Source: Gemmatimonadota bacterium
GTDB taxonomy: Bacteria; Gemmatimonadota; Gemmatimonadetes; Gemmatimonadales; GWC2-71-9
Length of the DNA stretch: 64,000 nt
Assembly (NCBI GenBank): GCA_003222035.1
Contig: QHUS01000052.1
Coordinates: 6,003-70,002, forward strand
Reading direction: 5' to 3'
Position numbers and translations under genes: made by a program. Below the pieces are notes generated by a model. It worked only from the letters and a program-made list of their open reading frames with translations. It did not search any database and had not been told where the DNA came from. Below are positions 4,781 to 50,640 of this stretch, one piece after another; within the stretch, counting starts at the first letter, position 1, and the number at the start of each line of letters is the position of its first letter.

Positions 4781-4783
4781 GGA

Positions 4784-6554: not shown

Positions 6555-6558
6555 ACGA

Positions 6559-33493: not shown

Positions 33494-33918
33494 CCGATCT
33501 TATCTCCCAAGGCATCCAGGTCCAGGATCGGCACCAGGGTGCCGCGACGTCGGGCCACGCCGGAGGCCCAGGGCAGCGACTCGCCGTGCGGTACGGGCAG
33601 GGCACGCTCGCGTACCACGTCGTCGGCGTCGTCCACCTCGAACGCCACCTGGCGCGTGCCCCCGCCCTTTCCGCCGGGCCCCAGCTCCACGAGCACTGCC
33701 GCCCGTCCGCGCTCGGGTGGCGGCGTCCGCTCCCCCAGCAGCGCGCCGAGGTGCACGACGGGAACCAGGCGTCCCCGTAGCGGCGTGAGTCCGCGCATCG
33801 CGGGCAGGGCGCGGGGCACGGAGAGCACTTCGGCCAGGTCTCCGACCTCGAGCACGCGCGCAAGCGGGAGGCCATACTCCTTGCCGTCGACGCGGACCAG
33901 CAGGTAACCGCGGCTCAT
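33490..33918 (-). CDS. CheW-like protein (divergent)
   Basis: LLVRVDGKEYGLPLARVLEV..MRGLTPLRGRLVPVVHLGALLG..AFEVDDADDV; it overlaps the next cheW by 4 nt. Confidence 0.8.
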   Translation of the reverse strand: MSRGYLLVRVDGKEYGLPLARVLEVGDLAEVLSVPRALPAMRGLTPLRGRLVPVVHLGALLGERTPPPERGRAAVLVELGPGGKGGGTRQVAFEVDDADDVVRERALPVPHGESLPWASGVARRRGTLVPILDLDALGDKIG

Positions 33919-33964
33919 GGCTCGCGGCTGAAGCCGCGGCTCGGCCCTGCCGCTAAGGTGGCGC

Positions 33965-35077
33965 TCATTCTGCGCCCCGCACGTTCAATTTGGCTCCCCG
34001 TGCCGTCAGTTGGTCGACCACGCGCTCCGCGATCTCCCCCAAGGGGAAGACCGCGTCTACCCCGCCGATCTGCACGGCGGCCGTCGGCATGCCGGCGATC
34101 ACGGCGGAGGCGCGGTCCTGCGCGATGCCGCCGCCGCCCGCCGCGCGGATCGCGCGTACGCCGTCCGCGCCGTCGCGGCCCATGCCGGTGAGGACGACGC
34201 CGACCGCATGCGGGCCGAACACAAGGGCCACGGAGCGGAACAGTGGATCGGCCGCCGGGCGGACGCCCCAGATAGGCGGCTCCTGGTCGAGCGCGATCGC
34301 GGGGCCATCGGGCGCGCGGACCACCCGCATATGATAATCGCCCGGCGCGACGTACGCCGTGTCGGCGACCACGGGCGTGCCGTCGTCGGCCTCCACCACG
34401 TGGAGCTCGGACAGCGAGTCGAGGCGCTCCGCGAGGGACCGCGTGAAATTCGGCGGCATGTGTTGCACCACGAGCACGGCGGCGCCCCGCCCCGTCGGAA
34501 GCCGCGGGATCAACTCGGCGAGCGCGCGGGGGCCGCCGGTCGACGCGGCCACGGCCACGGCGAACTGGGCCCGCGGGCGGAGCCCCGCTTCGGGCACGCG
34601 GCGGGCGGGCACCGGTGGCCGGGCCATCACGGCGACGCGGGACACGTCGGCCGCGAGGGCGCGGCGCACCGCGGCGCGCAACTCGGGACCCATGCGCAGC
34701 AGCGCCGAGCGGTTCCCTTCGTCGGGCTTGGCGACGATCTCGACTGCGCCCAGCTCCAGCGCGCGGATCGCGGCACCGGTCCCGGGCCCCGCGTGCGCGC
34801 TGACCACCACGATCGGGCGCGGCGTCTCCGACATGATGTAGCCGATCGCGCCCAGGCCGTCGAGCTCGGGCATCTCGAGGTCCATGGTCACGACATCGGG
34901 ATCGAACTGATGCACCTTGCGGACCGCGTCGAATCCGTCGCGGGCGGTCCCCACGACGCGGAACTCGCCGTCCCCCGCGGTATTCGCGCCGCTCAGCACG
35001 TCGCTCAGCACGCGTCGCAGCAACGCGCTGTCATCCACGACGAGAACGCTCGGCCGCCGATCAGAGGACGGTGACAT
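33965..35077 (-). CDS. cheB: protein-glutamate methylesterase CheB (REC plus esterase)
   Basis: [27 protein letters not shown] (REC domain) and [26 protein letters not shown] (esterase domain). The start ATG 35075-35077 overlaps the cheD 3' end by 17 nt. Confidence 0.93.
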
Positions 35078-35582
35078 CGGCCCCCACCGAGCGAACCTCG
35101 ACCCGGCCGTCCCCCACATAGAACCGCACGGAGCGGCCGGACCCACCCCCCACCGCCTCCCGCATCACGGGGATTCCGATGCGACGCAGGACGTCGCGCG
35201 CGGCGACGATGTTCCGTTCGCCCATCTGCATGGAGCCCGGGGTCATGAGCTGGGCGAACATGCTCGCTCCGCCCGCGAGCTTGGCGATCAGGCGCCGCGG
35301 TTCGGCGCCGAGCCGCGTGAGCTCGTGCACCAGCAGCGGGACGGCCGTCTCGGGAAACTTCGCGGGGTTGGTCGCATCGCGTGCGAGGCTGCGCGACGGG
35401 AGCAGGACATGCGCCATCGCCCCGGCCCCCGCCTGCGGATCGTGCAGCATGATCGCGACGCAGGACCCGAGCCCCAGCGTCACGAGCACCGCGCTCCCGC
35501 GTTCGGCGGCCCACTCGGCCACCTTGACGATCCGCTCGGCGGGGGGGAGCGGGGAGGGGGCCGCCCCGTCGCCCGCCCTCAC
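35061..35582 (-). CDS. cheD: chemoreceptor glutamine deamidase CheD
   Basis: [60 protein letters not shown]. The start GTG 35580-35582 overlaps the cheR stop (GTGA). Confidence 0.88.
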
Positions 35583-36403
35583 GCGGGCGTCGCCTTCTGG
35601 TAGATCCGCTCGCGCGGCTCCTCCAGCCGGAACCGGTCCCGCGCGGGGCCGAACAACGTCTCCACCTTGCCGAGGAGCAGCAACCCTCCGGGCGCGAGGG
35701 TATCGGCGAACAGCGTGAACAGCCGTTCCTGCATCGGCCGGTCGAAGTAGATCACGACGTTGCGACACACGATCAGGTCGTAGGGCGCCGCGGGCGCCGG
35801 CTCGCTGGTGAGGTCGTGCTTGAGGACGCGCACGATCCGCTGCAGCTCCGGCACGGGGCGGCGCGGCGGCTCCGGGGTGAAGTAGCGGTGGACCAGCTCG
35901 GCCGGCATCTCGGTGAACGCCGCCTCGGGATACGCGGGTGCCCGGGTGCGCTCGAGACTCGCGCGGTCGATGTCGGTGGCATCGACCCGAGCCCGTCCCA
36001 GCAGCGCGGGCTGGCCCAGCCGGCGCGCCGTCTCGGCGAGCGCCACCGCCATCGTGTATGGCTCCTCCCCCGAGGCGCAGCCGGCGGACCAGGCGCGAAC
36101 CTCCCCGCGGCGCGCTTTCCAGAGTCCCTCGATCCACGGCGCCAGCGCGCGCCACGTTTCCACGTTGCGGAAGAACTTGGTGACGTTGATGGTGAGCGCG
36201 TCGAGCAGCAAATCGTACTCGAGCGCGTCCTCCTCCAGCAGCCGGCCGTAGTCGGCGAACGTGTGAACGCCGCGGGCCCGCATCCGCACCGAGATGCGAC
36301 GCCGCAGGCAGCGGTCCTTGTAGGAGTCGCAGGCGAGGCCCCGCGCCTGCGTGATCTTGCGCGTGAGCGCCCGGAACGCCAGTTCGTCCTGCTCCGACTT
36401 CAC
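35579..36403 (-). CDS. cheR: chemotaxis protein methyltransferase CheR
   Basis: LTINVTKFFRNVETW..VRAWSAGCASGEEPYTMA..IVCRNVVIYFD. The start GTG 36401-36403 overlaps the upstream stop (GTGA). Confidence 0.9.
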   Translation of the reverse strand: MKSEQDELAFRALTRKITQARGLACDSYKDRCLRRRISVRMRARGVHTFADYGRLLEEDALEYDLLLDALTINVTKFFRNVETWRALAPWIEGLWKARRGEVRAWSAGCASGEEPYTMAVALAETARRLGQPALLGRARVDATDIDRASLERTRAPAYPEAAFTEMPAELVHRYFTPEPPRRPVPELQRIVRVLKHDLTSEPAPAAPYDLIVCRNVVIYFDRPMQERLFTLFADTLAPGGLLLLGKVETLFGPARDRFRLEEPRERIYQKATPA

Positions 36404-38016
36404 GACAGCGCGCTCAGGGTGTCCAGATTGGCCTTGACGAGCTCGTGCTTCGGATTGATCTCGAGCGCCTTGCGCCACAGCTGCGCCGCGAGCTCACGGT
36501 TGTTCCGCTTGTACGCAATGTTCCCGAGCTTGAAGTAGACGTCGTCGCCCAGCTCGGGCGCCAGCTCGACCGCCCGACTGTACGCGTCCCAGGCCTCGTC
36601 GTAGCGCGACCCGCGATAGGCCAGGTCGCCGAGATTCTTGGACAGCTGGGGGAGCGACGGCTCGTTCTTGCGCGCCGCCCGCACCAGGTCCTCCGCGCCT
36701 GTCAGATCGCCGGACAGCTCCTTCAGCACGGCGAAGTTGTTCTGCAGCGCGGCGTGCGAGGGATAGGCCTCCACTCCGTCCTCGGCCAGCTCCTCGGCCT
36801 GCTCGAATTCGCCGGCGCCCGCCGCCGCGAGGGAGCGCGCCCAGAACCAGGCGGGCGGGGGCGCTTGTCCGAACAGCTCGCGTGCCCGGTCGAGCCGCCC
36901 GGCGGCGCCGCCGTAGTCACCGCGCTTGAGCGCGACCACGCCCCAGCCGAGATACACTTTGGCATCGGTCCGCGCCCGGGCAGCGGCTTCGGCGTAGGCG
37001 GCCTCCGCCTCGTCCAGCCGCCCCAGCTGCTCGTATGCGAACCCCAGGTTGTGGAACACCGCGGGCCGCCCGCCGCCCTTCTCCGCGGCGAGGCGTAGCG
37101 CCTCCATGGCCTCGCGCCACCGGGCCTGCTTCAACGCCACCAACCCGATGTAGAAGTGGGCACTCGCGTCGCTGCCGCGCAGCTCCGCCACGCGCCGGAA
37201 CTCCCGCGTGGCTTCGTCGAGCATGCCCGTCTTGTAAAACGCCACGCCCAGGTTACGGTGCTCTTCGACGCGCGCGTCGGTAATCTCCGCATCCGCCCCC
37301 GTGGTCGTGCGCCCGGCGCGGTGCACGAACCCCGCCGTGATCAAGCCGTACAGCGCCTTCCCGATCTCGAACTCGCCCAACCCCGAGTCTTCGATCACCT
37401 GGTTCACGTCGCGCGACGCGTCGAGCAGCGGCAGGAGGCGTTGTTGCGCATCCGTGAGTTGGCTTTCGCTGATCGCGATCCGGTCCTTGTCTACGACGAA
37501 GATCAGGTCGAATGACGGGATCTTTTTTTCGATCAGGCTCCATTCGTCCACCCGGCGGGCGCCCTCGAGCAGCAGCGATTCCGGGTTGATCGAGACGAGG
37601 AAATCCTGTGGCCCCGGGCGGACGTCGGCCTCGAAGTTGAAGGTCCCCTGCGTCCACGTGAACAGGTAATAAACCGACTCCTCGATCTGCACGCGCATGT
37701 AGCGCTCGAGATCTCCCTGCGTGATCACCCCCATCGCGACCAGGACCTCGCCCAGCCTCTTGCCGTGCTCCTTGGTCTGCCGGTGCACGGCCACGTCGAG
37801 CTGCTCCTGGGTGATCTTGCTGTGCTTCACGAGGATGTCGCCCAAGCGGTCGCGTCGGTTCACGATCGACGCGTAGCAGATGCGCCCCTTCTCGAAGTAG
37901 ATGTAGCCGAAGTTCGAGCGGTCGGCGATGGACAGGCATCCCGTCTTCTGCCCGAGCGCCAGGAGCTGGAGCACGTCGGGGAGGGACGCTTCCTTGAGCG
38001 AGCCCTTGATGGCCAT
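36400..38016 (-). CDS. PATAN(DUF4388)-like domain protein with MshEN-like helical insert and C-terminal TPR repeats (paralog 1)
   Basis: [49 protein letters not shown] (DUF4388/PATAN signature), tandem RLGxxLV..G.I....L......Q motifs, and at least 6 TPR-like repeats. The start ATG 38014-38016 overlaps the upstream stop by 1 nt. Confidence 0.8.
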   Translation of the reverse strand: MAIKGSLKEASLPDVLQLLALGQKTGCLSIADRSNFGYIYFEKGRICYASIVNRRDRLGDILVKHSKITQEQLDVAVHRQTKEHGKRLGEVLVAMGVITQGDLERYMRVQIEESVYYLFTWTQGTFNFEADVRPGPQDFLVSINPESLLLEGARRVDEWSLIEKKIPSFDLIFVVDKDRIAISESQLTDAQQRLLPLLDASRDVNQVIEDSGLGEFEIGKALYGLITAGFVHRAGRTTTGADAEITDARVEEHRNLGVAFYKTGMLDEATREFRRVAELRGSDASAHFYIGLVALKQARWREAMEALRLAAEKGGGRPAVFHNLGFAYEQLGRLDEAEAAYAEAAARARTDAKVYLGWGVVALKRGDYGGAAGRLDRARELFGQAPPPAWFWARSLAAAGAGEFEQAEELAEDGVEAYPSHAALQNNFAVLKELSGDLTGAEDLVRAARKNEPSLPQLSKNLGDLAYRGSRYDEAWDAYSRAVELAPELGDDVYFKLGNIAYKRNNRELAAQLWRKALEINPKHELVKANLDTLSALS

Positions 38017-39980
38017 CAGCGAAACTCCTCGATCATGCGGTCCGCCACGTCGATCCAGTCCCAGACCATCTTCTCGCGACTCTTGACGCCTCCGAGGCTC
38101 GAGACCACGAGACCGCTGGTGCGAAACCCGCTGGAGCGTCGGCTGTCGCGCGGCGCCTGGCCTTCGAGCACTTCGCGCGCGAGGCCCGCCGAGACAGGCC
38201 GCCCATCCTGGGCGGCCCCCGCCTCGATCACGCGCTGGATCAGGCCCACGAGGCCGCGCACCGAGTCGGCGGGCCGGTCGGCGAGGTAGTCGATCAGCGC
38301 CGGTTCCGGGGTCACGCCCTGCTGCGCCAGCAAACGCTCGAGCACGGCGCGCCTCACGTCGCGGTCGGGCTCCTTGATCTCCGCCACCAGTCCGCCCTCG
38401 AGGCGCGACACGATGCGCTCCTCGATCCCGACCAGCGTATTGGGATGCGCCGGCGCCGTGAACACGAGCTGGCGATCCTTGTCCTGGAGCAGGTTGAACA
38501 GGTTGAACAGCTCTTCCTGTGTCCGTTCCTTGCCGGTCAGCAGATGGATGTCGTCGAGCAACAACGCCGTGGCTCGGCGGTAGCGGGCGCGCCACCAGTC
38601 CACGCGGTTGCCGTCGATCGCGCCGATCAGCTCGTCGATGAACGCCTGGGTGGAGAGGCACGCCACGACGGCGCGGCGGCCGCGCGCCAACTCGAGCCCG
38701 ACCGCGTTGAGCAGGTGCGTCTTGCCGAGCCCGCTCTTCCCGACGAGGACGAGCGGGTTGTACTTCTTCCCCGGCCGCTCGAGCACGGCCCGGGCCGCGC
38801 TGACCGCGACCTGGTTCGACGGGCCCACGGCGTACGCGGCGAGCGGAAACGCCGCTGACGGCCCGGGGGGCGGCGCGGCCCCATCCCGGACCTTCGTAGC
38901 GGCCTGCTCCGCCTCCTGCAGCCGCTCGGGGTCTCGGAACACGCTGTCGCCGGCGGCCTGGGGGTCGAGCTCCCCCACCTCCGCCTCGAGCGCTTTGAGG
39001 CGCTCGACGTCCTCCGCGAACCCCGCGATGGCCTCGTCCACCGCAGTTGGCGCGTCCTGCTGCAGGAGCGCCTCGAGCCGATGCGTGCGGTATCCCTCGC
39101 CTTCCCACCGCAGCACGGCTTCGCCCACCCGAGCGCGCCACGCTTCGACGGCTTTTCCGACGGTGACGGTCACGTCGGCGAGGAATTGTCCGAACTCGTC
39201 CCCGCCGGCCGCGGCGGCCGGGACGGGCCCGGCCTTCTCCGCCGCCCCCTTTGCCCGCTGCGCGTCGAGCCCCAGGATCCGTTTGACCGTCTCCGCGTTG
39301 ATCGAGGTATCGTGGACGGCCTGGAACGCCACGAGCCGGTTCAACGCGCCCATCAACTCGCGCACGTTGCCGAGCTCGGCTTGCGCCACGGTCTCGAGTA
39401 CGCCGGGGTCGAACCGCGCGCCCCGCTCTTCGGCCTTCCGCCGCAGAATCGCCACGCGGGTTTCGTACTCGGGCGTCGCGATGTCCACCACCAGCCCGCC
39501 CGACAGCCGGGAGATCAGCCGCTCGTCGAGATCGGCGATCTCGGCGGGCGGGCGATCGCTCGTCAGGACGATCTGGCGCCCCGCGGCCTGTAACGCCTCG
39601 GTGAGCCGCAGCAGCTCCGACTGCATCTCCTTGCGGTTCGTCAGGAATTGCACGTCGTCCACGAGGAGCACGTCCACGTTCTGGAAGCGGCGACGGAACG
39701 CGTCACCCTGTCCCGCCGCCACGCTCGCGTGGAACGCTTCGACGTACTCGTCGAGCGTCAGGTACTCGATGTTCAGCGCGGGTGCCGCCTTCTTGGCGGC
39801 GTGGCCGATCGCCATGAGGAGATGCGTCTTGCCCAGACCCGGGCCGCTATAGACGAACAGCGGGTTGTATGCCGCGCCCGGGCTCTCGGCCACGGTGCGG
39901 CCCGCCGTGACGGCCAGCCGGTTCGCGGCGCCCACGACGAACGTGTCGAAGGAGTACTTCGGGTTGAGCGCGCTCGTCAT
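38016..39980 (-). CDS. tandem DnaA-type AAA+ ATPase (two DnaA domain-III-like modules; no DnaA domain I/II or DNA-binding domain IV)
   Basis: Module 1: [78 protein letters not shown]. Module 2: [66 protein letters not shown]. The start ATG overlaps the mglA stop (ATGA). Confidence 0.8.
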
Positions 39981-40576
39981 GCCGTGGTCCCGGCGGCGAG
40001 CCTTTTGAGCACCAGCTCGGAGATGCCCTTGAGTGTCTCGAACACGCCCTTCCCGTGCAGCGCGTCAGCGCTGAAGCTCGGGACTCCCCGGAAATTGAGC
40101 GCGTCGTCCAGATCGGACGCCGAGAGGATCAGCTCGCGCGGCAGGTCCTGCTTGTTGTACTGCAGGACCAGCGGAACGGTGCGGATGTCCACGCCGTGCT
40201 CCAGCAAATTGCTCTGCAGGTTCTGCAGGCTCTCGAGGTTCTCATCGAGCTGGCGCGCCTGACTGTCGGCGACGAACACGACGCCGTCGGCCCCCTGGAG
40301 CACCAGCCGGCGCGTGGCGTTGTAGTAGACCTGGCCGGGGACCGTGTAGAGCTGAAACCGCGTCGCGAATCCCGAGATCTGCCCCAGGTCGATCGGCAGA
40401 AAGTCGAAGAACAGGGTGCGGTCGGTCTGCGTGGCCAGGGAGACCATGCGTCCCCGACGCGAGTCCGGGACGCGGCCATAGATGTAGTGCAGGTTCGTCG
40501 TCTTGCCAGACCGCCCCGGCCCGTAGTAGACGATTTTGCACGTGATCTCGCGCGTCGTGAAGTTGACCAGAGACAC
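39977..40576 (-). CDS. mglA: Ras-like small GTPase MglA
   Basis: [77 protein letters not shown] is collinear with, and highly similar to, Myxococcus MglA as I recall it. Confidence 0.92.
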
Positions 40577-40580
40577 GGGG

Positions 40581-41051
40581 CTATCTCCCGAAGAGCGTGT
40601 TGAGACTGGCGCTCAGCTCGCGCTCGAAGTCGGCCGCGAGCACCTGCTTCGGCACGCTGTCTTTGGGGCTCGCCGCCTGCAGATCGGCGGCGAGCTGCTC
40701 AAAGAATAATTGCACCAGGCCGAGCGACGAAACCTCGAGATCGTACACGACCAGCGCCACCAACCGGCCGCGGCCCGTCGCGACTGCCGCCAGGAAGATC
40801 CCGTGCCGCTCACCCTGATGGTTCAACGCGGCGAACGGCGGTTGACCCATCTGCCGCGCGATCTCGTCGGTGGATGCGACGATCGCCGCCCCGAGCGCCG
40901 CCGCTGACATCACGTCCACGGCGCGCGAGAATCCGTGCTGCGCCAGCACCTGGCCCGCCGACGTCATGACCAGCACGAGCCGCGCGCTCGCTTCCTTCAC
41001 GAACTTGACCAGCGGCTCGAGGGTCCAGTTTTCGACGGCGCGCGTCGTCAT
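40581..41051 (-). CDS. mglB: Roadblock/LC7 protein, MglB-like (putative MglA GAP)
   Basis: 156 aa, immediately upstream of mglA (4-nt gap). [52 protein letters not shown] parallels the MglB roadblock fold. Confidence 0.8.
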
Positions 41052-41407
41052 CCGACCACCTCCCCCGCCCGCAGCAGCTCCAGCCGCACGAGGCCGACGT
41101 TCACGTCCGGCTCCGCGACCGCCACGACGAGGGTCCCGCCGGCGGTCGGAACCACCAGCAACGCGCCCTGCTCGGCCTGCAGGTGCCAGAACAGGCTCGC
41201 GCCGACGCCCGCGGCTTCCATCGCGCGGCGCAACCGCGTGGCGAGGCTCGCCGCGAGCGCCGCGACCGCGGGTCCCTTGATCCCCTCCATGAGCTGCTCC
41301 GCCACGATGATCCCGTCGTCGGCGGAGACGAGCATCGCTCCCCGCACGCCGCGCACGCGCGTGACGAGGTCGAGCGCCCGCGTATAATTCGCCGGCGCGG
41401 TCGTCAT
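41048..41407 (-). CDS. Roadblock/LC7 domain protein (second)
   Basis: 119 aa. VRGVRGAMLVSADDGIIVAEQL..AVAALAASLATRL..ALLVVPTAGGTLVVAVAEPDVNVGLVRLELLR. It overlaps both neighbours with ATGA junctions. Confidence 0.75.
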   Translation of the reverse strand: MTTAPANYTRALDLVTRVRGVRGAMLVSADDGIIVAEQLMEGIKGPAVAALAASLATRLRRAMEAAGVGASLFWHLQAEQGALLVVPTAGGTLVVAVAEPDVNVGLVRLELLRAGEVVG

Positions 41408-42288
41408 GCGTGCTTCTCCAGCCAGCGGCGCGCCGCCACGGCCGCGCGCTGGGCGATGATCGCCAACCGTCCCATCGGGACGGCGCGGTCGCGCACGACG
41501 AGCAGCAGCGCGTCGCCCGTGGGCGCGGTCAGATGGACATGTCCGCCGTTGCCCTCCGCCGCAACACCGGTCCACCGTCCCAGAGCCAGCAGCTTGGCCG
41601 TCCGCGCCGCCTCCTGGGAGACGCCGGCGAGGTACGCGGCGACGGCGTCGGTCACGTCCTTGCCCCCGGGGTCCTTGAGCGCTCCGCCGAGCACCCGCCC
41701 CGCCGCGTCGAGCAACAGAAGCCCCTCCTGTGCTCCCTCGAGCCCGGCGAATACGCGGGCCTCCTCGAGAGGCTGGGCCGCCCCGGGGGGTCGGGGGGGG
41801 GGTGGAGGCGCGCGCTCGGTGGGAGCGTCGGAGGCCGGCAGCGCGACGGGCTCCCCCTCGCCCTCGGGGGCGGTGGGGCTAGGGGGGGATTCGCCGCCGC
41901 GCGCCATCGCGAGGGCTTGCGCGATACTCGCATCGGCCGGCGCCACGCGCTGCGCCGCCTCCAGGTGTGCGGCCGCCTGTGCCAGGTCGCCCACCTTGAA
42001 ATAGAGGAAGGCGAGCCCCTTGAGCGCGCCGACGTGGTCAGGAGCGATGCGCAGCGCCATGTCCCACTCGTCGAAGGCGCGCTCGTAGTCGTGCTTGTCT
42101 GCGAGGATGCGCGCGAACAGGTCGTGCGCGTCGGGGAGGTGGGGGTGACGGTCCAGGCCCGTCACGGCCACCCGCTGCGCGGCGTCGAGCTGGCCCTTCA
42201 TGCGCAGCAGCTCCCCCAGGCGCAGGAACACGAGGCTGTCCGGATCCTGCGCCAACTGCGAGGAGAGGGTCTTGATCTCTTCAGCCAT
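41404..42288 (-). CDS. TPR - Pro-rich linker - Roadblock/LC7 fusion protein
   Basis: N-terminal TPRs (SLVFLRLGELLRMKGQLDAA.., DAHDLFARILADKHDYERA.., ALKGLAFLYFKVGDLAQA), a PPPPPRPPG linker, and a C-terminal roadblock-like GLLLLDAAGRVLGGAL..DAVAAYLAGVSQEAART..ALLLVVRDRAVPMGRLAI. Confidence 0.7.
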   Translation of the reverse strand: MAEEIKTLSSQLAQDPDSLVFLRLGELLRMKGQLDAAQRVAVTGLDRHPHLPDAHDLFARILADKHDYERAFDEWDMALRIAPDHVGALKGLAFLYFKVGDLAQAAAHLEAAQRVAPADASIAQALAMARGGESPPSPTAPEGEGEPVALPASDAPTERAPPPPPRPPGAAQPLEEARVFAGLEGAQEGLLLLDAAGRVLGGALKDPGGKDVTDAVAAYLAGVSQEAARTAKLLALGRWTGVAAEGNGGHVHLTAPTGDALLLVVRDRAVPMGRLAIIAQRAAVAARRWLEKHA

Positions 42289-43438
42289 GCGTCGAGTTCC
42301 CCGTGCCCGCCAAGGTCTGGGCGGCGGCCTTGGCGCGGTGCACGGCGTCGCTCTGCGCCAGCTCCGCTTCCGAGTGCGCGGCCAGGCGCTCCCACTGGTC
42401 CCACTGCTCCACGGCCTCGCCGAACCGCCCGGTGGCGGCGAGGGCGTAACCGAGGATGCGGTGCGCGGCGACGCTCAAGGGGTCGAGCCGAAGCGCCCCG
42501 CGCAACTCTTCCACGGCGTCGGCAGCGCGTCCCCCGGCGAGCGCGATGCGGCCCAGCAGCAGGTGCACGTCGGGATCATGGGGATGCACGCCCGCCGCCT
42601 GCTCGGCCAGGCTACGCGCTTCCTCCAGGTCGCGCCGCCGCAGCGCGTCTTCCGCGCGCGCCACGAGCGCCGCCAGATCGGCGGCGAGCGTGGTGTGCTC
42701 GCGCTTGGTCGTACCGGGGTCGGAGAGCACGATCACCCCGGCGCTCTCGAGCCCGAACAGGGTCTTGGCGACGTCGAACTCCGAGCGTCCCAGGTCGGAG
42801 GCGATGGCCCGCACGTCCCGCGCGCCGTTGATCATCGCGAGCATCTCCCACTCGGGCGGTAGCAGGTCGAGCCCGCCCTCGACGCCTCCCTGGGGCGGGG
42901 CGAGCGTGGGCACGACGCCCAGGTGGGGAATGCGGCCCTCGATACGGGACCACTCGTCGATGCGCCGCGCGCCTTCCATCAGCAGCGCCTCCGTGGGAAT
43001 GCGCACGGTGGCGTCCGCCGGCACCTCGTCGGGCAGGCCCTCGGTGAACGAGAAGTAGCCTTCGCGCCAGCTCATGACCTCGAAGACGACCTCTTCGATC
43101 TGGAATCGCACCTGGCGCTCGAGCTCGCGGCGCGTGAGGGCGCCGATCGCGACGAGGATCTCGCCCAGGCGGCGTTTGTCGCCCTGGCGCAGCTGCATGT
43201 CGCGCGCGCGGTGGATGTCGGCCTCGCCGATCTTGCCGGTCCGCAGCAGCAGCGCGCCGATCGGATGGGGGTTCGAGCGAATCTCCGCGGCAATGATGGC
43301 GCCGCCCTCGAACGAGATCATGCCCGCGTTGTTGCGGAGCTCGGAGGTGACACGCAGCGCCCCGGTCTTCCGGCTCAGGTCGAGCAGCTGGAAGACATCG
43401 TGGATACCGAGCTCGCGGAGCGGGCCTTCGATCGGCAT
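42281..43438 (-). CDS. PATAN(DUF4388)-like domain protein with MshEN-like insert and TPR repeats (paralog 2)
   Basis: MPIEGPLRELGIHDVFQLLDLSRKTGALRVTSELRNNAGMISFEGGAIIAA, then RLGEILVAIGALTRRELERQVRFQ, and C-terminal TPRs. The architecture matches 36400..38016. Confidence 0.8.
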   Translation of the reverse strand: MPIEGPLRELGIHDVFQLLDLSRKTGALRVTSELRNNAGMISFEGGAIIAAEIRSNPHPIGALLLRTGKIGEADIHRARDMQLRQGDKRRLGEILVAIGALTRRELERQVRFQIEEVVFEVMSWREGYFSFTEGLPDEVPADATVRIPTEALLMEGARRIDEWSRIEGRIPHLGVVPTLAPPQGGVEGGLDLLPPEWEMLAMINGARDVRAIASDLGRSEFDVAKTLFGLESAGVIVLSDPGTTKREHTTLAADLAALVARAEDALRRRDLEEARSLAEQAAGVHPHDPDVHLLLGRIALAGGRAADAVEELRGALRLDPLSVAAHRILGYALAATGRFGEAVEQWDQWERLAAHSEAELAQSDAVHRAKAAAQTLAGTGNSTHG

Positions 43439-43452
43439 GGGGGGGGGCTGGC

Positions 43453-46149
43453 CTAATCCGAGGCGAAGATGTGTTGCAGGTCGACGGCGGTGCGCGCGTG
43501 CGCGCGCGCCGCCTGTGCGAACGCGCCAGCGGGGTCGATGCGCGTCACTTTCCCCCACGCCTGCACCGCCTCGTCGTAGCGGTGCAGGCGCGCGAGCGCC
43601 ACGCCGAGCTGAAACAGCGCTTCCACCTGGTCGGGGTCGAACTTGAGCGCGCGCTGGAACGCCTCGAGCGCCTGGGCATCGCGCTTGTCGTCCAGCAGGG
43701 TACGCCCGAGCAGCAGCAGCGCCAGCAGATCGTACGGGTCCTGCTCGAGCATCTCTGCGAGTCGCACGACGGCCTGGCGGTGGCGCCCGGAGCGCCGCAG
43801 CAGGTCGGCCAGCGCCAGCCCGGCCTCGTGAAAGGTCGGCAACGCATCGAGGGCGCGCTCGTAGGCGTCCTGGGCGTCGCGCCACGCTTCCTTGTCCTCG
43901 TGCAGCCGGCCCAGGTCGAGCCAGACCTGGATATAGCCGCGGTCGAGCTCGAGCGCGGACCGGTACGCGGCGAGCGCCCCCGCCTTATCGCCGACCTTGA
44001 GGGCGACGTCGCCCTGCAACTTGTGGAGGTCGGCGCGCCCAGGCGCGCGGGTCTGCGCCCGCTGCAGCGCGACGAGAGCTCCGGCGGCATCGCCTGCCGC
44101 CGCCCGCCCTTTGGCCGCGGCGACGAGGGCATCCACGTTCTCCGGTGCGAGCGCCAGCAGTTCCTCCGCCAGCCCGCGCGCCTCGTCGCCACGCGGGCCG
44201 CCCAGGGCGAACAACGCCTTGACCTCCCCGAGGCGCGCGTCGGCGCGGTCGGGTTCGAGCCCCCGGACCTCGCGGTAGCGCTCGAGCGCCTCGCCGTGCA
44301 GGCCCCGCTTCGCGAAGATGTCGCCCAGCAGCACGCCGGCGTGGGCGCGGCTGGCACCCCGCTGCACGGCGCGCACCGTCTCGGCCGCGGCGACATCCAG
44401 CAGGCCCTTGCTCACGTAATCGCGCGCCAGCGCGAGGGGATCGTCGGCGGACTTGGCGGTTGGCGACTCCGCGGCGGCAACCGCCGGCGCCAGGTCCTGA
44501 AAGATGTTGTCGAGCAGCCGCTCGTCGAAGGTGAAGTCCTCGCCGATCGTCTCGGCCGTCACGTCCGCCGAAATCTCGGGCGCGATGCCGATCGTGCCCT
44601 TCTCGTACTGCAGGTCGATGGTGAGGGCGAACTTCTGTGAGACGTAATAGGGATCGAGCTCGAGCGCCCGTTTTGTGGCGCGCAACGCGCCGTCGAAGTC
44701 GCCCAGGTTGGACAGGGTGAAGCTCAGGTTGTAGTGCGCGCCCGCGTGGTGCGGGTCCACCTCGACGGCGCGCACGAAGGCGTTGCGCGCGTCCTGAAAG
44801 CGCTTCAGCTCCACGAGCACCAGCCCCACGCCGTTCCACGCCGGCGCGGAGCTGGCGTCGCTCGACAGGACCTGGCGGTACGCTTCCAGCGACAGTTGGA
44901 AGCGGCGCAGTTGAAACAGCAGCAGGGCCAGGTTGAGGCGCGCGGCGGTGAACGTCCCCTGGAGCCGCAGCGCGGTCCGGAACGACTCGATCGCGGTGTC
45001 GGCGTCTTTGCCCGAGGCCTGGACCACGCCGAGGTTGTTCCACGCCAGCGCGTACTTCAGGTCCACCTCGACCGCCTGGCGGTACGAGGCGACCGCCTGC
45101 GTCGTGCGGCCCGCCTGGTGCAGAACGACGCCGTGCTCGTTCCAGAGCTTGGGCGAGTCGGGGACTTCGCGGAGCAGCGTTTCGTACAGCTCCAGGGCGG
45201 CCGGGAAGTCGCGCTTCAGGAGGTGAACCTCGGCCGTCGCCTGCAGCGCGAGGCGCCGATCCTCGCCGCGCTCGAGCCCGAGCCGGTATTCGCGCAGTGC
45301 CTCGTTATAGTAGCCCTTCTGCCGGAACGCGAGCCCGAGATTGTAGTGGGCCAGCGCGTTGCCCTCCACCACCTGCGGCTCGGGCGCCAGGCGCTGGCGC
45401 CGCTCCTGCATCTTGCGCTCGGCGTTGTAGCGCTCGAGCGAGAGGTTGGTCTGTGCCCGGGCGAGCGGCGGGTTGAGCTCGATGGCGCGCTTGGAGGACG
45501 CACGCGCCTCCTGATGCCGGCCCATGTCGCCCAGCACGAACGCCATCAGGTAGTGGGCGTTGGCGTTGTCGGGGTTCAGCTCCACGGCGCGCTCCAGGGC
45601 GGCGAGCGCCTCCGTGTTCAACCCGCGATTGTAGTAGATCTCGCCGAGGTAGAAGTGCACGACCGTGGACTCGGGCTCGAGTTCGACGGCGCGCGCGAAC
45701 CAGTCGGTCGCCGCCTCGGGACGGCCCCGGTTCTTTTCCGCGAGCCCGAGCTGGATGATCGCGGCCACATCCTTGGAGCGGTGGGCCAGCAGCTGCTCGA
45801 ACTCTTTGACCGCGTCATCGTGCGCGCCGAGGATCGCGTAGGCGCGTCCCAGCTCCCAGCGGGCGTCGCGGTCGTCGGGCGCCTGGCGGAGGCGCTCGCG
45901 CAACTGCGCGACCCGACGGTCGTAATAACCCGTGTCGTGATAGGCGATCTCGAGGTTGCGCTGCGCGACCTGCATCTTCGGATCGAGCTCGAGCGCGCGC
46001 GTGAACGCCCCGATTGCCTCTTCGACGAGGCCCTTCTGGTAGTAGAGAACGCCGAGATTGTTGTGCGCCCCGGCGTCCGACGGATCGATCCGGCGCGCGA
46101 AGGATCGGAGGACGGCGAGGTCGCGTTCCGAGAGCGCCGGCGCCGTCAC
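43453..46149 (-). CDS. large TPR-repeat protein (898 aa)
   Basis: About 20 consecutive TPR units (e.g. AHNNLGVLYYQKGLVEEAIGAFTRALELDP, VHFYLGEIYYNRGLNTEALAALERAVELNP, AWNNLGVVQASGKDADTAIESFRTALRLQ). Confidence 0.85.
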   Translation of the reverse strand: MTAPALSERDLAVLRSFARRIDPSDAGAHNNLGVLYYQKGLVEEAIGAFTRALELDPKMQVAQRNLEIAYHDTGYYDRRVAQLRERLRQAPDDRDARWELGRAYAILGAHDDAVKEFEQLLAHRSKDVAAIIQLGLAEKNRGRPEAATDWFARAVELEPESTVVHFYLGEIYYNRGLNTEALAALERAVELNPDNANAHYLMAFVLGDMGRHQEARASSKRAIELNPPLARAQTNLSLERYNAERKMQERRQRLAPEPQVVEGNALAHYNLGLAFRQKGYYNEALREYRLGLERGEDRRLALQATAEVHLLKRDFPAALELYETLLREVPDSPKLWNEHGVVLHQAGRTTQAVASYRQAVEVDLKYALAWNNLGVVQASGKDADTAIESFRTALRLQGTFTAARLNLALLLFQLRRFQLSLEAYRQVLSSDASSAPAWNGVGLVLVELKRFQDARNAFVRAVEVDPHHAGAHYNLSFTLSNLGDFDGALRATKRALELDPYYVSQKFALTIDLQYEKGTIGIAPEISADVTAETIGEDFTFDERLLDNIFQDLAPAVAAAESPTAKSADDPLALARDYVSKGLLDVAAAETVRAVQRGASRAHAGVLLGDIFAKRGLHGEALERYREVRGLEPDRADARLGEVKALFALGGPRGDEARGLAEELLALAPENVDALVAAAKGRAAAGDAAGALVALQRAQTRAPGRADLHKLQGDVALKVGDKAGALAAYRSALELDRGYIQVWLDLGRLHEDKEAWRDAQDAYERALDALPTFHEAGLALADLLRRSGRHRQAVVRLAEMLEQDPYDLLALLLLGRTLLDDKRDAQALEAFQRALKFDPDQVEALFQLGVALARLHRYDEAVQAWGKVTRIDPAGAFAQAARAHARTAVDLQHIFASD

Positions 46150-46152
46150 GGG

Positions 46153-46770
46153 TCAGCTCAGGCGGATGGCGTCAAAGATGGCCTTGAGCGACGCCAGATC
46201 GGGGAGCAGCAGGAAGTCGCCCCGCAGCCCGTCCCCCGCGTCGATCTGCAACTCGGTCTCGACGCAGAACACGAAGTCGCGCTCGTGCCCGAAATTCAGA
46301 TAGGTGGTCGTGAGCACCGCCGCCGCCAGGTCCACCACGAGGCTCGGGACGGAGGGCAGCAGCAACATCCCCATGAAGTCCGAGAGCGCATTCAGGTACG
46401 CACCCGCCAGGATGTTGCCCGCCTCCTTGAGACAGGACTGCTCCAGCGCGTCGTACACGGCGGTCGTGCCGATGGGCCGGCGCAGCAGCATGTCGCACAG
46501 CCGGCGGCCCGCCGACTCGGGGAACAAGAGCAGCGTGCGCCCCGTCAGATCCCCCAGCATGTGCATCAGGACCGCCGCCACCACGTCCTGCGGATTGCCC
46601 AGCAGGTCGGGGACCTCTTCGAGGCGCGCGATGTTGATCTGCGGCACGCTGATCATGATCCGGCAGTTCGTGAGCTGCGACAGGGCGGTGGCGGCGTGAC
46701 CGGCGCCGATGTTCGCCACCTCGCGCAACGCGTCGATCTGCCGCTCCTTGAGATCCCGCACGTCCTCCAT
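46153..46770 (-). CDS. cheC: CheY-P phosphatase CheC
   Basis: IDALREVANIGAGHAATALSQL and a second EAGNILAGAYLNALS half-site (the CheC/FliY duplicated motif). Confidence 0.88.
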   Translation of the reverse strand: MEDVRDLKERQIDALREVANIGAGHAATALSQLTNCRIMISVPQINIARLEEVPDLLGNPQDVVAAVLMHMLGDLTGRTLLLFPESAGRRLCDMLLRRPIGTTAVYDALEQSCLKEAGNILAGAYLNALSDFMGMLLLPSVPSLVVDLAAAVLTTTYLNFGHERDFVFCVETELQIDAGDGLRGDFLLLPDLASLKAIFDAIRLS

Positions 46771-46786
46771 TGCGCCTCCGCTCGCC

Positions 46787-48682
46787 CTACACTAGCCCGC
46801 CCGCATCGAGAATCAGCGCGGGCATCCCGTCGCCCATGATCGTCGCGCCGCTGAATACCGGCAGCGTGCCGCGAGGGGCGTCGAATCCCTTGACCACGAT
46901 CTCCTGCTGCCCCAGCATCCCGTCGACCACGATGCCGCTGCGCCGGTCACCCATTTCGAGCACGATGATCGGCCAGCGGGCGGGCGGATCGCCGGCCACC
47001 CCGAGCAGCCGCCGGAGGTGCACCAGCGGAACCACGCGGTCGCGCAGTACGATCGCCTCCCGCCCCTCGACGATGGTCGTGGCCTGTACGCCGAATTCCA
47101 CCGTCTCCGCTACGTAGGTGAGCGGCAGCGCGTAGCGCTCCGGTCCCACCCCGGCGATCAGAGCGCGCACGATCGCCAGGGTGACCGGCAGCCGCATCAC
47201 GAACGTAGTGCCCTTCCCCGCCTCCGTCCGGATATCGAGCGAGCCTCCCAGCGCCCGGATGCGCGTCATGGCCACGTCGATGCCCACGCCGCGCCCCGAC
47301 ACGCTCGTTACGGCCTCGGCGGTCGAGAATCCGGGCCGGGCGAGGACGCGCAGCAGCTGATCGTCGGTGAGCGCCTCGGCGTGCGCATCCACGATGCCCT
47401 CCCGCTTGGCCCGCGCGAGGACCTTCGCGCGGTCGATGCCGCGTCCGTCGTCCCGCACGCTGATCGCGACGCTGGCGCGCTCGCGCACCGCCGTCAGCAC
47501 GATCTCTCCCTCGGGCTTCTTGCCGCGGCGCTTGCGGTCGGCGGGCGACTCGATCCCGTGATCCACGGCGTTCCGCAACAGGTGCAGCAGCGGATCGCCC
47601 AGCTCGTCGAGGATCGCGCGGTCGACCTCGATTTCCTTCCCCTCCACGCGGAACGCGACCTGCTTCCCGAGCTCGCGCGCCAGGTCACGCACCAGCCGGG
47701 GGAAGCGATCGAACACCTGCCACACGGGCGTCATGCGCGCCTGGATGATCTCGGCCTGCAGCTCGCTCGAGAGCCGGGACACCTGAATCGCAACGTCGTC
47801 GATCGCGGGGTCACGCCGCTCGGCGGCGAGCTCGTTGAGCCGGCCGCGCACCGTGACGAGCTCGCCGATGAGATCCATCAGACCGTCGAGCCGTCCGAGG
47901 TCGACGCGGATGTGACGGGTCCTGGCGTCCGGCGTCCCGGCGCCCGACGGACCCGGCGCTTCGGGCGCGGGGCGCCGCTCCTCGCCGCCCACCGTGACGT
48001 GCTCGACGTCCCCCGCGGATCGCACCACCCGTTCGATGTCCCCCGGCGCGGCCGCGCCGCCGATCCGGAAGCTGAACCGCCCGTCGAAGTCCTCGGCCTC
48101 GAATGCCACCTCGGGCGGCGTCACGTCGTGGATCTCGCCCAGCGACCGCGCCTTCTTGAGCGCGAGCACCGCGCGTCCCCCCTTGAGCGGCGCCTCGGCG
48201 CGCAGGGTCACCTGGACCAGCCGTCCCGGCGTGATCGGGCCCGCCACCTCCGGCGCCGGCCCGGGCGTGGCGGTCGGGCGGGCGCCCGATCGAACGCCCG
48301 CGAGCGCCGCGGCCGCGCCGTCGAGATCGGCGACGACCTCCGCGACGTCGATCTCGTCCTCGCGGCCCGCGACCGACAGCTCCACCGCGTGCTCGAGCCC
48401 GTCCCGCGCCCGAAACAGCAGCTGCAGGAGGTCGTCCGTGGCCGGTCGCGCGCCGCGCCGCACCAGGTCGAGCAGGTTCTCGGCCCGGTGGGCCAGGTCG
48501 GTGACGCGCGCATAACCCATCGTCGCCGCCATGCCCTTCACGGTGTGCACGGCGCGGAACAGTCCACCGACCGGTGCGGGGTTGGCGGGAGCCCGCTCCC
48601 AGTCGAGCAGCAGCTGGTTGCAGGCGCTCAAGTGCTCCCGGCTTTCCGCGAGGAACAGCTCGGCGTACTGCGACAGGTCCAT
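46787..48682 (-). CDS. cheA: chemotaxis histidine kinase CheA
   Basis: Hpt domain (FRAVHTVKGMAATMG), a dimerisation region, HATPase (HLLRNAVDHGIE..DDGRGID..GRGVGIDV..GKGTTF) and a C-terminal CheW-like domain. Confidence 0.95.
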   Translation of the reverse strand: MDLSQYAELFLAESREHLSACNQLLLDWERAPANPAPVGGLFRAVHTVKGMAATMGYARVTDLAHRAENLLDLVRRGARPATDDLLQLLFRARDGLEHAVELSVAGREDEIDVAEVVADLDGAAAALAGVRSGARPTATPGPAPEVAGPITPGRLVQVTLRAEAPLKGGRAVLALKKARSLGEIHDVTPPEVAFEAEDFDGRFSFRIGGAAAPGDIERVVRSAGDVEHVTVGGEERRPAPEAPGPSGAGTPDARTRHIRVDLGRLDGLMDLIGELVTVRGRLNELAAERRDPAIDDVAIQVSRLSSELQAEIIQARMTPVWQVFDRFPRLVRDLARELGKQVAFRVEGKEIEVDRAILDELGDPLLHLLRNAVDHGIESPADRKRRGKKPEGEIVLTAVRERASVAISVRDDGRGIDRAKVLARAKREGIVDAHAEALTDDQLLRVLARPGFSTAEAVTSVSGRGVGIDVAMTRIRALGGSLDIRTEAGKGTTFVMRLPVTLAIVRALIAGVGPERYALPLTYVAETVEFGVQATTIVEGREAIVLRDRVVPLVHLRRLLGVAGDPPARWPIIVLEMGDRRSGIVVDGMLGQQEIVVKGFDAPRGTLPVFSGATIMGDGMPALILDAGGLV

Positions 48683-48686
48683 GTGG

Positions 48687-49049
48687 TCAGCCGAGCACGC
48701 GCTGAACGGCCTCGAGCACGCGCGATGGCTGGAACGGCTTCACGACGAAGTCCTTCGCGCCGGCCTGGATCGCCTCGACGACGAGGGCCTGCTGGCCCAT
48801 CGCGCTGCACATGAGAATCTTCGCGTCGGGATCCTGCTTGACGATCTCGCGCACCGCGTCGATCCCGCCCATGTCCGGCATCACGATGTCCATGGTGACG
48901 AGATCGGGCTTGAGTTGGCGGTATTTCTCGACGGCCTGCGATCCCGTTTCGGCCTCGCCCACCACCTCGAAGCCGGCTTGCGCCAGGATGTCGCTGATCA
49001 TCGTCCGCATGAAGATGGCGTCGTCGCAGACGAGGACAGTGTGGCTCAC
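48687..49049 (-). CDS. cheY: response regulator CheY
   Basis: 120-aa single REC domain: VLVCDDAIFMR..LVTMDIVMPDMGG..KDFVVKPF. Confidence 0.92.
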   Translation of the reverse strand: MSHTVLVCDDAIFMRTMISDILAQAGFEVVGEAETGSQAVEKYRQLKPDLVTMDIVMPDMGGIDAVREIVKQDPDAKILMCSAMGQQALVVEAIQAGAKDFVVKPFQPSRVLEAVQRVLG

Positions 49050-49058
49050 ACATCCTCC

Positions 49059-49631
49059 CTAGGAAGACAGAATGGGGGTTAGCAGCGCGTCGGTATCGAG
49101 AACCACGAAGAGTTGACCGGCGCGGCGCCCGACGGCCCGCACTAGCGTCGGATCGATGCCGGGCAGTGCCTGCCGGCGTTCCAGCGCCTCTCCACCCACC
49201 GAGAGGAGGTCCACGACCTCATCGACCGTGAAACCGAGGACCTTTTTGCCCCCGTCCAGCTCGAGCAACACCGTCGTCCCCGCCACGTCTCCCCCTTCTC
49301 CTCCCACCCTCTCTCCCCCTCCACCCGCCCCGCCACCGGTCATGGGGTCTGAGGCGGGGGCAGGAGCAGGGGCAGGGCTTGGGGCGGACCCGGAAGCGGG
49401 GGCGGGGGGGAGGGGGGGGGCGGGGGCGGCCTGACGCAACGCCCGCCATCCCTCCACCACCGTCACGAGGGTGCCCCGCACGTTCACAATTCCTGCCACG
49501 ACTGGGGGCGCCCCGGGGATCCGGGTCGGCTCCAGCCGCGGCAGGATTTCACGGACCCGCTCTGCCTCGGTGGCGCAGAGGAGGTTGCCCACCCGAAACA
49601 GCAGCAGTCGGACGACCCCCGCGTCACTCAT
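49059..49631 (-). CDS. CheW-like protein with a ~50-aa Pro/Ala/Gly low-complexity insert
   Basis: LLLFRVGNLLCATEAERVREIL..VAGIVNVRGTLVTVV..LGFTVDEVVDLL, with the insert APAPPLPPAPASGSAPSPAPAPAPAS..GGGAGGGGERVGGEGGD. The start ATG 49629-49631 overlaps the rluD end. Confidence 0.8.
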   Translation of the reverse strand: MSDAGVVRLLLFRVGNLLCATEAERVREILPRLEPTRIPGAPPVVAGIVNVRGTLVTVVEGWRALRQAAPAPPLPPAPASGSAPSPAPAPAPASDPMTGGGAGGGGERVGGEGGDVAGTTVLLELDGGKKVLGFTVDEVVDLLSVGGEALERRQALPGIDPTLVRAVGRRAGQLFVVLDTDALLTPILSS

Positions 49632-50640
49632 CCGATGCGAAGAAGCCAAGATACTGCAAGGGGTTGCGTTGAGCAAGCAAATTCGAATCGGCCGCTGCTT
49701 CCGCGAGGGCCGGGCGAAGCTCCGCCGGCCATTCCGAGCGCAGCGTCAGCTGCGCACCGCTCACCGGATGGGGGAGGGCCAGCAGAGCGGCGTGGAGCAG
49801 CTGGCGCGGAGCAAGGGCTTCGAGGCGTTCGGCCGCCTGTCGCTGTGACGGCGTGACGCGCCGGCTGCCGCCGAAGGCGTACTCGCGGTCGCCGACCACG
49901 GGGTGCCCGACGTGCGCGAGGTGGACGCGAATCTGATGGGTACGCCCCGTGCCGAGCGTGACCCGCAGCAGATCGGTCTGGGCAAAGCGCGCGGTGACGC
50001 GCACGTGCGTGACCGCGTGGCGGCCGCCCGCCCGTACCGTCATGCGCTTGCGATCCGCCGGATCGCGAGCCATCGGTGCCTCGATGTCCACGGGACTCTT
50101 GGCGAAGTGCCCCCAGGCGAGGGCGGCGTAGACGCGGCTCACCTGGCGCCGCTCGATCAGGCTCGTGAGACGGCGGTGTGCGACGTCGGTCTTCGCCACC
50201 AGGAGGAGCCCCGAGGTATCACGGTCGAGTCGATGCACGATACCGGGCCGCCCTTCGGCCGCGCCGTCCGGCGCGAGCGCCGTCCCCCGCTCCGTCAGCA
50301 CGTTCACGAGCGTGTCATCCCAGTGCCCGGGGCCCGGGTGGACGACCAGGCCGGCCGGCTTGTCCAGCACCGCGAGGTGCTCGTCTTCGTATGCAAACGT
50401 CAGGTCGCGGTGCGCGGGGGCGTAGCTTCTGGGCCGCGGTTCCGCGGCGGGCATGTCGACGGACACCACCGCACCCCGCTCCAGTTGCGTCGAGGCGCGC
50501 AGGGGTCGTCCGTGGAGGGTGACGCGTTTGTCGGCGATGATGCGGGCGGCGACGGTGCGGGACAGCGCTAACTGGTCGGCGAGGAACCGGTCGAGCCGCT
50601 CCGTTTCCGGGGTGAGGATGCAGAAGGTGATGGCGGCCAT
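49624..50640 (-). CDS. rluD: 23S rRNA pseudouridine synthase RluD family
   Basis: An S4 domain (RLDRFLADQLALSRTVAARII) and the catalytic HRLDRDTSGLLLVAK, GRTHQIRVH. Confidence 0.9.
   Translation of the reverse strand: MAAITFCILTPETERLDRFLADQLALSRTVAARIIADKRVTLHGRPLRASTQLERGAVVSVDMPAAEPRPRSYAPAHRDLTFAYEDEHLAVLDKPAGLVVHPGPGHWDDTLVNVLTERGTALAPDGAAEGRPGIVHRLDRDTSGLLLVAKTDVAHRRLTSLIERRQVSRVYAALAWGHFAKSPVDIEAPMARDPADRKRMTVRAGGRHAVTHVRVTARFAQTDLLRVTLGTGRTHQIRVHLAHVGHPVVGDREYAFGGSRRVTPSQRQAAERLEALAPRQLLHAALLALPHPVSGAQLTLRSEWPAELRPALAEAAADSNLLAQRNPLQYLGFFASDE

Follow-up and report, generated by a model that had tools for sequence, protein, structure and literature searches.

The window analysed here is a stretch of 64,000 nucleotides from contig QHUS01000052.1 (forward-strand positions 6,003 to 70,002; assembly GCA_003222035.1) of a Gemmatimonadota bacterium. 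Its GC content is 70% and the majority of its genes lie on the minus strand. The gene under study codes for a protein with a PATAN (DUF4388) domain and C-terminal tetratricopeptide repeats (TPR). It is called paralog 2 below; a second gene of the same kind, paralog 1, lies in the same window. The PATAN domain of paralog 2 is split by an insert made of two tandem motifs that resemble the MshEN_N module, which binds cyclic di-GMP (c-di-GMP) in pilus and secretion ATPases. The features of the gene are as follows.

42281..43438, minus strand: PATAN-TPR paralog 2 gene, 385 amino acids (aa), ATG at 43438, coordinates including the stop codon
42947..43429, minus strand: PATAN (DUF4388) domain, residues 4-164, split by the insert (Pfam and AlphaFold2 (AF2) model)
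43193..43264, minus strand: motif copy 1, residues 59-82, PIGALLLRTGKIGEADIHRARDMQ, a degenerate half-site
43172..43192, minus strand: spacer, residues 83-89, LRQGDKR, 7 residues
43100..43171, minus strand: motif copy 2, residues 90-113, RLGEILVAIGALTRRELERQVRFQ, a near-canonical half-site with 0 mismatches to the relaxed pattern given below
42410..42673, minus strand: C-terminal TPR repeats, residues ~256-343 (Pfam TPR_16, TPR_19, TPR_2, TPR_14)

The protein was read by translating window positions 42281-43885 (minus strand) from the ATG at 43438. An earlier note on this DNA had placed the motif pair at 43100-43264. The translation agrees with its peptide (PIGALLLRTGKIGEADIHRARDMQ-LRQGDKR-RLGEILVAIGALTRRELERQVRFQ, residues 59-113) and the coordinates are exact, residue 59 beginning at 43264 and residue 113 finishing at 43100. 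Orthologs of 383-387 aa have the same start site and the N-terminus MAIEGPL. No Shine-Dalgarno sequence is visible before the ATG (43439-43452, minus strand); this interval, which follows the TAG stop codon of an 898-aa TPR gene, contains a C9 homopolymer. Pfam DUF4388 (PF14332) matches paralog 2 with E = 4.2e-30 and 104.7 bits (cut-off 25 bits) over profile positions 1-122 of 122. The 161 residues of the domain are spread over these 122 positions, which indicates an insertion of roughly 40-55 residues.

The MshEN consensus is RLGxx(L/V/I)(L/V/I)xxG(L/V/I)(L/V/I)xxxxLxxxLxxQ, in two copies with a 5-residue spacer (Wang et al., 2016, PMC5013675). Both copies were scored with the relaxed 24-residue pattern of the same paper, [RKPN]hGxxhhxx[GAS]hhxxxxhxxxhxx[QNKRYWST], and positions 1, 2, 3, 17, 21 and 24 of each motif were counted as ligand contacts. 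Copy 2 fits the consensus, as had been claimed: it shows 0 mismatches to the relaxed pattern and one to the strict extended consensus, and it keeps 6 of 6 contact positions, with V instead of L at position 21. Copy 1 departs twice from the relaxed pattern (K11 and R21) and three times from the strict consensus, and it keeps 4 of 6 contacts (I2, G3, I17 and Q24), R1 being replaced by P and L21 by R. It was said to have lost its initial Arg-Leu. The Arg is indeed lost (P59), while the Leu is conservatively replaced by Ile, and 110 of 112 close orthologs (78-91% identical to paralog 2) have Leu. Two points were overlooked in that first reading, namely the 7-residue spacer in place of the canonical 5 and the Leu21 to Arg change in copy 1; the latter is more consequential than the claimed Arg-Leu loss. 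The canonical spacer length is found in neither paralog (7 in paralog 2, 6 in paralog 1), but five residues are not strictly required because the c-di-GMP binder PilF GSPII-C also has 7.

In a genome of 70% GC, an Arg/Leu/Gly-rich protein might resemble MshEN by chance. All six frames of the 3.58-Mb genome, 7.16 million residues in total, were searched for tandem pairs separated by 3-9 residues. Only four had a total of two or fewer mismatches: PilB (0+0, spacer 5), paralog 1 (1+0, spacer 6), paralog 2 (2+0, spacer 7) and a hydrophobic membrane-like stretch. The composition-based expectation genome-wide is ~0.1 pairs at ≤2 mismatches and 0.003 at ≤1, and the three best matches are PilB and the two PATAN paralogs. 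Two search results could be taken to favor chance. Pfam T2SSE_N/MshEN (PF05157) gave no match to a 63-residue segment or to the whole of paralog 2, even at E ≤ 10, and a phmmer search of all PDB chains with the 180-residue PATAN domain gave as its best match MshE (5HTL, residues 10-62) with E = 0.064. The Pfam miss is uninformative, since all that the model matches in the genome's own PilB lies downstream of the 53-residue motif. PilB (contig C70:11483-13240, minus strand, outside the window) carries a perfect tandem motif, KLGEILLREGLITHDQLKKALLEQ-KNTGM-RLGYTLVKLGFVEETEISKMLARQ, at 13004-13162, and PF05157 matches C70:12740-13003, the C-terminal subdomain only. PATAN inserts thus go unannotated, since PF05157 does not cover the ligand-binding helices. 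A second T2SSE_N-containing ATPase, a 753-aa open frame, matches PF05157 at C52:72788-73024 (minus strand, also outside the window). It has no tandem motif at ≤3 mismatches in the genome scan and is probably a non-binding GspE/PilB-like paralog.

As the single-sequence phmmer search reached only E = 0.064, we turned to a family profile. When 1.84 billion cluster representatives were searched exhaustively, 8,751 of them (clusters at 50% identity) matched this PATAN domain at E ≤ 0.001. Three of these proteins (P0151, P0159 and P0171, ~1450-1490 aa) have up to five PATAN-like stretches each, several with a tandem MshEN-type insert. From the best 150 of the 8,751, the 102 domain matches with full coverage were aligned together with both window paralogs into 104 rows; the tandem motif is found at the same place in essentially all 104. 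A profile of 43 diverse PATAN inserts was then searched against the PDB. Its significant matches were all MshEN/GSPII domains, with no unrelated ones: Thermus thermophilus PilF (2.9e-30, three domains), PilB (5.9e-15), MshE 5HTL (1.8e-14) and PilF GSPII-B (2.7e-8). The non-binder XpsE gave E = 0.1. The chance explanation, to which we give hardly any weight, was rejected on the genome scan against the composition expectation, the family-wide motif and the profile matches (1e-14 to 1e-30). The claim of the earlier note that the module is not a chance match holds on the same grounds.

AF2 modelled residues 1-180 with a predicted local distance difference test score (pLDDT) of 78.9 and a predicted template-modelling score (pTM) of 0.73. 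The model consists of beta strands, four helices (60-66, 72-83, 91-97 and 103-122) and then the remaining PATAN core (a strand and a helix). Modelled alone, the insert also gives four helices (pLDDT 80.7). In a Foldseek search of the insert alone against the PDB, the nine best matches are all MshE or PilF GSPII, with template-modelling (TM) scores of 0.64-0.77 and root-mean-square deviations (rmsd) of 1.1-2.1 Å, and eight of the nine are c-di-GMP-bound entries. The top matches are MshE with c-di-GMP (TM 0.73-0.77, rmsd 1.1-1.7 Å, 55-56 columns). Unrelated folds rank only below the MshE/PilF matches, and the Xanthomonas citri PilB-PilZ complex is among the weaker ones. The whole PATAN-domain model found nothing significant in the PDB by Foldseek (best E = 0.14, proteasome and EspG noise), and this search detected no solved PATAN structure. 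The profile E-values and the predicted fold bear out the assignment of the stretch to a true MshEN_N-type tandem motif. As judged from sequence comparison and modelling, it is a real and conserved MshEN_N-type module of the same kind as the known PATAN alpha-clip. Residues 59-113 are predicted to form the four-helix alpha-clip insertion of the PATAN (DUF4388) domain, homologous to MshEN_N.

A conservation check proposed in the earlier note came out in favor of the module. In the 104 diverse PATAN domains (representatives of 50%-identity clusters), the motif columns are more constrained than the rest of the insert, their mean column entropy being 1.57 bits and that of the remaining insert columns 2.70 bits (Mann-Whitney p = 8e-7). 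The residue counts by motif position are:

Position 1: copy 1, R 57 and P 18; copy 2, R 58 and K 12
Position 2: copy 1, L 72 and I 22; copy 2, L 71
Position 3: copy 1, G 92; copy 2, G 91
Position 6: copy 1, L 99; copy 2, L 101
Position 7: copy 2, V 71
Position 10: copy 1, G 88; copy 2, G 90
Position 11: copy 1, K 38 and R 35
Position 12: copy 1, I 62
Position 17: copy 1, L 77; copy 2, L 71
Position 21: copy 1, L 33 and R 31; copy 2, V 41 and L 34
Position 24: copy 1, Q 82; copy 2, Q 87

All twelve ligand-contact residues are kept in 27 of the 104 domains, paralog 1 included, and the 4+6 pattern of paralog 2 is found in 13. The usual spacer of the family is 5 residues, since about 40-45% of the rows have gaps at two of the seven spacer columns. 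In the 112 close orthologs, P59 (112/112), K69 (109), R79 (111), Q82 (112) and Q113 (112) are essentially fixed and G61 and G92 are invariant. The 7-residue spacer is kept as well, with xRQGDxR nearly invariant. I60, I75 and H76 are minor private deviations of paralog 2, where the orthologs have L, L and E. Since its deviations are fixed in the orthologs, the degeneracy of copy 1 is a clade state, and by this comparison the half-degenerate site is a stable feature of the lineage. The view of copy 1 as a decaying relic was rejected on the near-invariance of P59, K69, R79 and the spacer.

The neighborhood of paralog 2, including paralog 1, is listed below; the block between the paralogs and its genes were assigned by Pfam scan.

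36400..38016, minus strand: PATAN-TPR paralog 1, 538 aa, with an initiating ATG that overlaps the DnaA-like gene's stop codon (TGATG)
37687..37848, minus strand: paralog 1 insert, RLGDILVKHSKITQEQLDVAVHRQ-TKEHGK-RLGEVLVAMGVITQGDLERYMRVQ, spacer 6, 1+0 relaxed mismatches, 6+6 contacts kept
38016..42288, minus strand: block between both paralogs
38016-39980, minus strand: double DnaA-type ATPase
39977-40576, minus strand: MglA-like GTPase
40581-41051, minus strand: Roadblock/MglB-like gene
41048-41575, minus strand: second Roadblock/MglB-like open reading frame (ORF), its true start not fixed
41404-42288, minus strand: TPR-Roadblock

These genes belong to a long co-directional minus-strand run. 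It opens with CheW-like, CheY, CheA, CheC/X, the 898-aa TPR protein and paralog 2, continues with TPR-Roadblock, Roadblock, MglB-like Roadblock, the MglA-like GTPase and the double DnaA-type ATPase, and closes with paralog 1, CheR, CheB, CheW and a TPR protein. No obvious methyl-accepting chemotaxis protein was seen among the Pfam-scanned ORFs of the Che-like genes around the MglA/PATAN block (32154-49676, minus strand). The mglA/mglB association is present, with three Roadblock genes and the MglA-like GTPase directly downstream of paralog 2; PATAN genes as neighbors of mglA/mglB have been published before (Wuichet and Sogaard-Andersen). Translations and the Pfam scan confirm that both PATAN-TPR paralogs carry the insert and flank the roadblock/mglBA/DnaA-like genes. 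Their PATAN domains are ~42% identical, and the DUF4388 match of paralog 1 is broken into profile positions 1-77 and 49-122. Paralogs 1 and 2 are the only two PATAN genes in the 3.58-Mb genome. Two PATAN genes were detected in 41 of 41 related genomes searched (11 genera), adjacent where one contig holds both and mostly ~5.3 kb apart. Related-genus loci were examined by tblastn. In one genus (genomes G031 and G035; locus L001, G035:C4:58000-67000, genes 2532-3866 and 4045-6598, both minus strand), there is no double DnaA-like ATPase gene between mglA and the paralog-1-like PATAN gene, and the paralog-2-like protein is 247 aa long and keeps its insert, with Leu at motif-1 position 1.

In MshE, PilB and PilF, MshEN_N holds one c-di-GMP between its two tandem 24-residue helix-turn-helix motifs. 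In MshE and PilF, each guanine is flanked by a position 1 on one side and a three-residue cluster on the other: for the first guanine, motif-I position 1 opposite motif-I positions 17 and 21 with motif-II position 2; for the second, motif-II position 1 opposite motif-I position 2 with motif-II positions 17 and 21. When these sites are mapped onto paralog 2, the second is intact (R90, G92, Q113 and the hydrophobic cluster I60/L106/V110), and the first is changed on both faces (P59 versus I75/R79/L91). P1, K11 and the 7-residue spacer all have a precedent in the binder PilF GSPII-C; Leu21Arg alone has none. Position 1 of MshEN tolerates K or L, with higher affinity, and mutation of MshE Arg9 costs less than 5-fold in affinity. 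The isolated 62-residue MshEN_N binds c-di-GMP at 0.35 µM (Wang et al., 2016, PMC5013675), so that the missing C-terminal subdomain is no obstacle. The genome has ~19 GGDEF domain matches, which argues that c-di-GMP is made. Since the alpha-clip is homologous to the c-di-GMP-binding module of the pilus ATPases, the insert is a credible candidate for a second-messenger sensor of a recognized kind. From sequence, model and analogy, we give about an even chance to the prediction that paralog 2 binds c-di-GMP, probably more weakly than paralog 1. A difference in affinity between the two paralogs, predicted from their motifs, is plausible.

Several observations weigh against c-di-GMP binding by paralog 2. 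Single hydrophobic substitutions in MshE cost more than 10-fold in affinity, and L29R, the equivalent of motif I Leu21Arg (R79 here), is listed by Wang et al. (2016, PMC5013675) among the changes that abolish binding in XpsE. GSPII-A of PilF, in which one motif is good and the other badly degenerate, is a non-binder (Neissner et al., 2024, PMC11731258). Because 5HTL was among the PDB entries on which AF2 was trained, the match in fold does not stand independently of the sequence homology. Our literature search found no paper that explicitly states or tests c-di-GMP binding by a PATAN insert. Degenerate MshEN_N domains can serve as protein-binding surfaces, as in the X. citri PilB-PilZ complex, where the MshEN-like N-terminal domain of PilB binds the PilZ protein and not c-di-GMP. 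In the genus of G031 and G035, no part of the alpha-clip insert is present in the paralog-1-like PATAN gene (...AAIVNRPLDTENAVYTLFTWT...). Retention of the module in both paralogs, which the earlier note took as a sign of function, thus stands for the window but is not universal.

The insert of paralog 2 may therefore be an MshEN_N homolog that does not sense a nucleotide and acts as a structural element or a protein-protein surface, which we regard as a serious alternative at somewhat less than an even chance. Its partners might be MglA/MglB-Roadblock, the neighboring TPR proteins or PilB/PilC, and the motif residues would be kept for bundle stability and partner contacts. Most of the conserved MshEN motif residues do belong to the hydrophobic core of the bundle, and PATAN domains are documented protein-interaction modules. 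The two altered contacts of copy 1 on both faces of the first guanine pocket, the L21R change shared with XpsE, the behavior of GSPII-A, the PilB-PilZ complex among the fold matches and the dispensability of the insert in one genus's paralog 1 all fit this explanation. It accounts less well for the two motif Gln residues, which in MshE contact the ligand only. This Gln pair and G61/G92 are invariant in the orthologs and highly conserved across the family. Half-site 2 is wholly intact and three of the four deviations are precedented in a binding domain.

The co-occurrence of the two altered contacts suggests another possibility. Arg21 accompanies Pro at position 1 in 14 of 18 Pro-bearing inserts and is found in 17 of the 86 others; both residues are fixed in the orthologs and, by mapping onto the MshE and PilF descriptions, they face each other across one guanine pocket. 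The clade-specific P59/R79 pair might thus re-tune the pocket for a different or asymmetric ligand, such as 3'3'-cyclic GMP-AMP (3'3'-cGAMP), pGpG, cyclic di-AMP (c-di-AMP) or c-di-GMP held by a stacking Arg from helix 2. This is quite improbable in our estimate. Specificity for c-di-GMP has been reported for MshEN domains, in the wider clade Arg21 is also seen where position 1 is Arg, Leu or Gln, and the co-occurrence lies within one clade and may be a single ancestral event. As it is confined to one clade, the P59/R79 co-variation was not relied on as evidence of compensation. The broader proposal that fixed Pro1/Arg21 marks a distinct MshEN binding mode, by a stacking Arg from helix 2 or by a re-tuned pocket, appears unlikely. 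If it were true, the two paralogs around MglA/MglB would respond to distinct nucleotide signals or to distinct ranges of concentration, and cell polarity would receive an input with two thresholds.

The best overall explanation, which in our judgment stands at an even balance, is an alpha-clip/MshEN_N homolog with predicted c-di-GMP binding and an output to the polarity module. The insert of paralog 2 would still bind c-di-GMP, probably more weakly or more asymmetrically than that of paralog 1. Occupancy would then shift the way in which the PATAN-TPR adaptor engages partners from the co-transcribed Che-like/MglA-MglB/Roadblock polarity module, and possibly the type IV pilus motor. Should PATAN inserts bind c-di-GMP, the proteins that carry them would form a large, widespread class of candidate receptors, in which current Pfam annotation misses the insert. 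In many phyla, c-di-GMP would then act not just at the pilus ATPase: the MglA/MglB polarity switch and the PATAN-PilB contacts would both lie directly downstream of it. The narrower contribution of this gene is that a near-canonical and a half-degenerate site are paired in one operon. With this natural pair, it is convenient to test which positions of the motif are important.

One of the closest known systems is MshEN_N of Vibrio cholerae MshE (5HTL; PMC5013675), likewise with two tandem 24-residue motifs in a four-helix unit. Residues 60-114 of paralog 2 align to MshE 10-62, the model superposes at 1.1-1.7 Å, and copy 2 keeps R, L, G, L17, V21 and Q24. Unlike in MshE, the module of paralog 2 lies inside a PATAN domain and not at the N-terminus of a type II secretion system/type IV pilus (T2SS/T4P) ATPase, MshEN_C (T2SSE_N1) is absent, the spacer is 7 instead of 5, and in copy 1 R1 is replaced by P, the hydrophobic residue at position 11 by K and L21 by R. 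T. thermophilus PilF GSPII-C reads RLGEVLVQEGKLSREALKEALEVQ-KGLPRAK-PLGEILVELG... (Neissner et al., 2024, PMC11731258) and shares with paralog 2 the 7-residue spacer, Lys at motif I position 11 and Pro at one position 1. A second c-di-GMP site of PilF (~0.3-0.5 µM) has been attributed to GSPII-C in the same paper. In GSPII-C the Pro belongs to motif II and neither LxxxL pair is altered, whereas paralog 2 has Pro in motif I plus L21R; unlike paralog 2, GSPII-C also has a third motif and a C-terminal subdomain. In the non-binder XpsE, the N-terminal domain (2D27/2D28) shares the Leu21 to Arg change in motif I and a basic position 11. It shows eight deviations, including both Gly3 and Q61, against three hard ones in paralog 2, which keeps both Gly3 and both Gln24.

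The reading of the earlier note is thus sound in the main, but the idea of this relationship is already known. According to Han et al. (bioRxiv 10.1101/2021.06.11.447907), the alpha-clip of PATAN domains was described in 2006 by Makarova et al., who also noted its recurrence at the N-termini of T2SS/T4P ATPases. The MshEN proteins counted by Wang et al. (2016, PMC5013675) already included PATAN proteins: they gave 22 for Myxococcus xanthus, with MXAN_3211 as a predicted binder, and Oklitschek et al. called MXAN_3211 a PATAN protein. Paralog 2 matches MXAN_3211 in the kind of prediction and, by description, in architecture; lineage and gene context differ. Synechocystis PATAN domains bind PilB1 and PilC (Han et al., bioRxiv 10.1101/2021.06.11.447907). 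Like the PATAN alpha-clip family there (PixE/PixG), paralog 2 has a DUF4388 domain with an insertion of two repeated helical hairpins and an mglB/mglA association. Unlike the PatA-type PixE/PixG, it ends in TPR and not in a receiver domain and is found in a Gemmatimonadales host. Its context differs as well, as the paralog pair brackets an mglA/mglB/Roadblock/DnaA-like block inside a Che-like operon.

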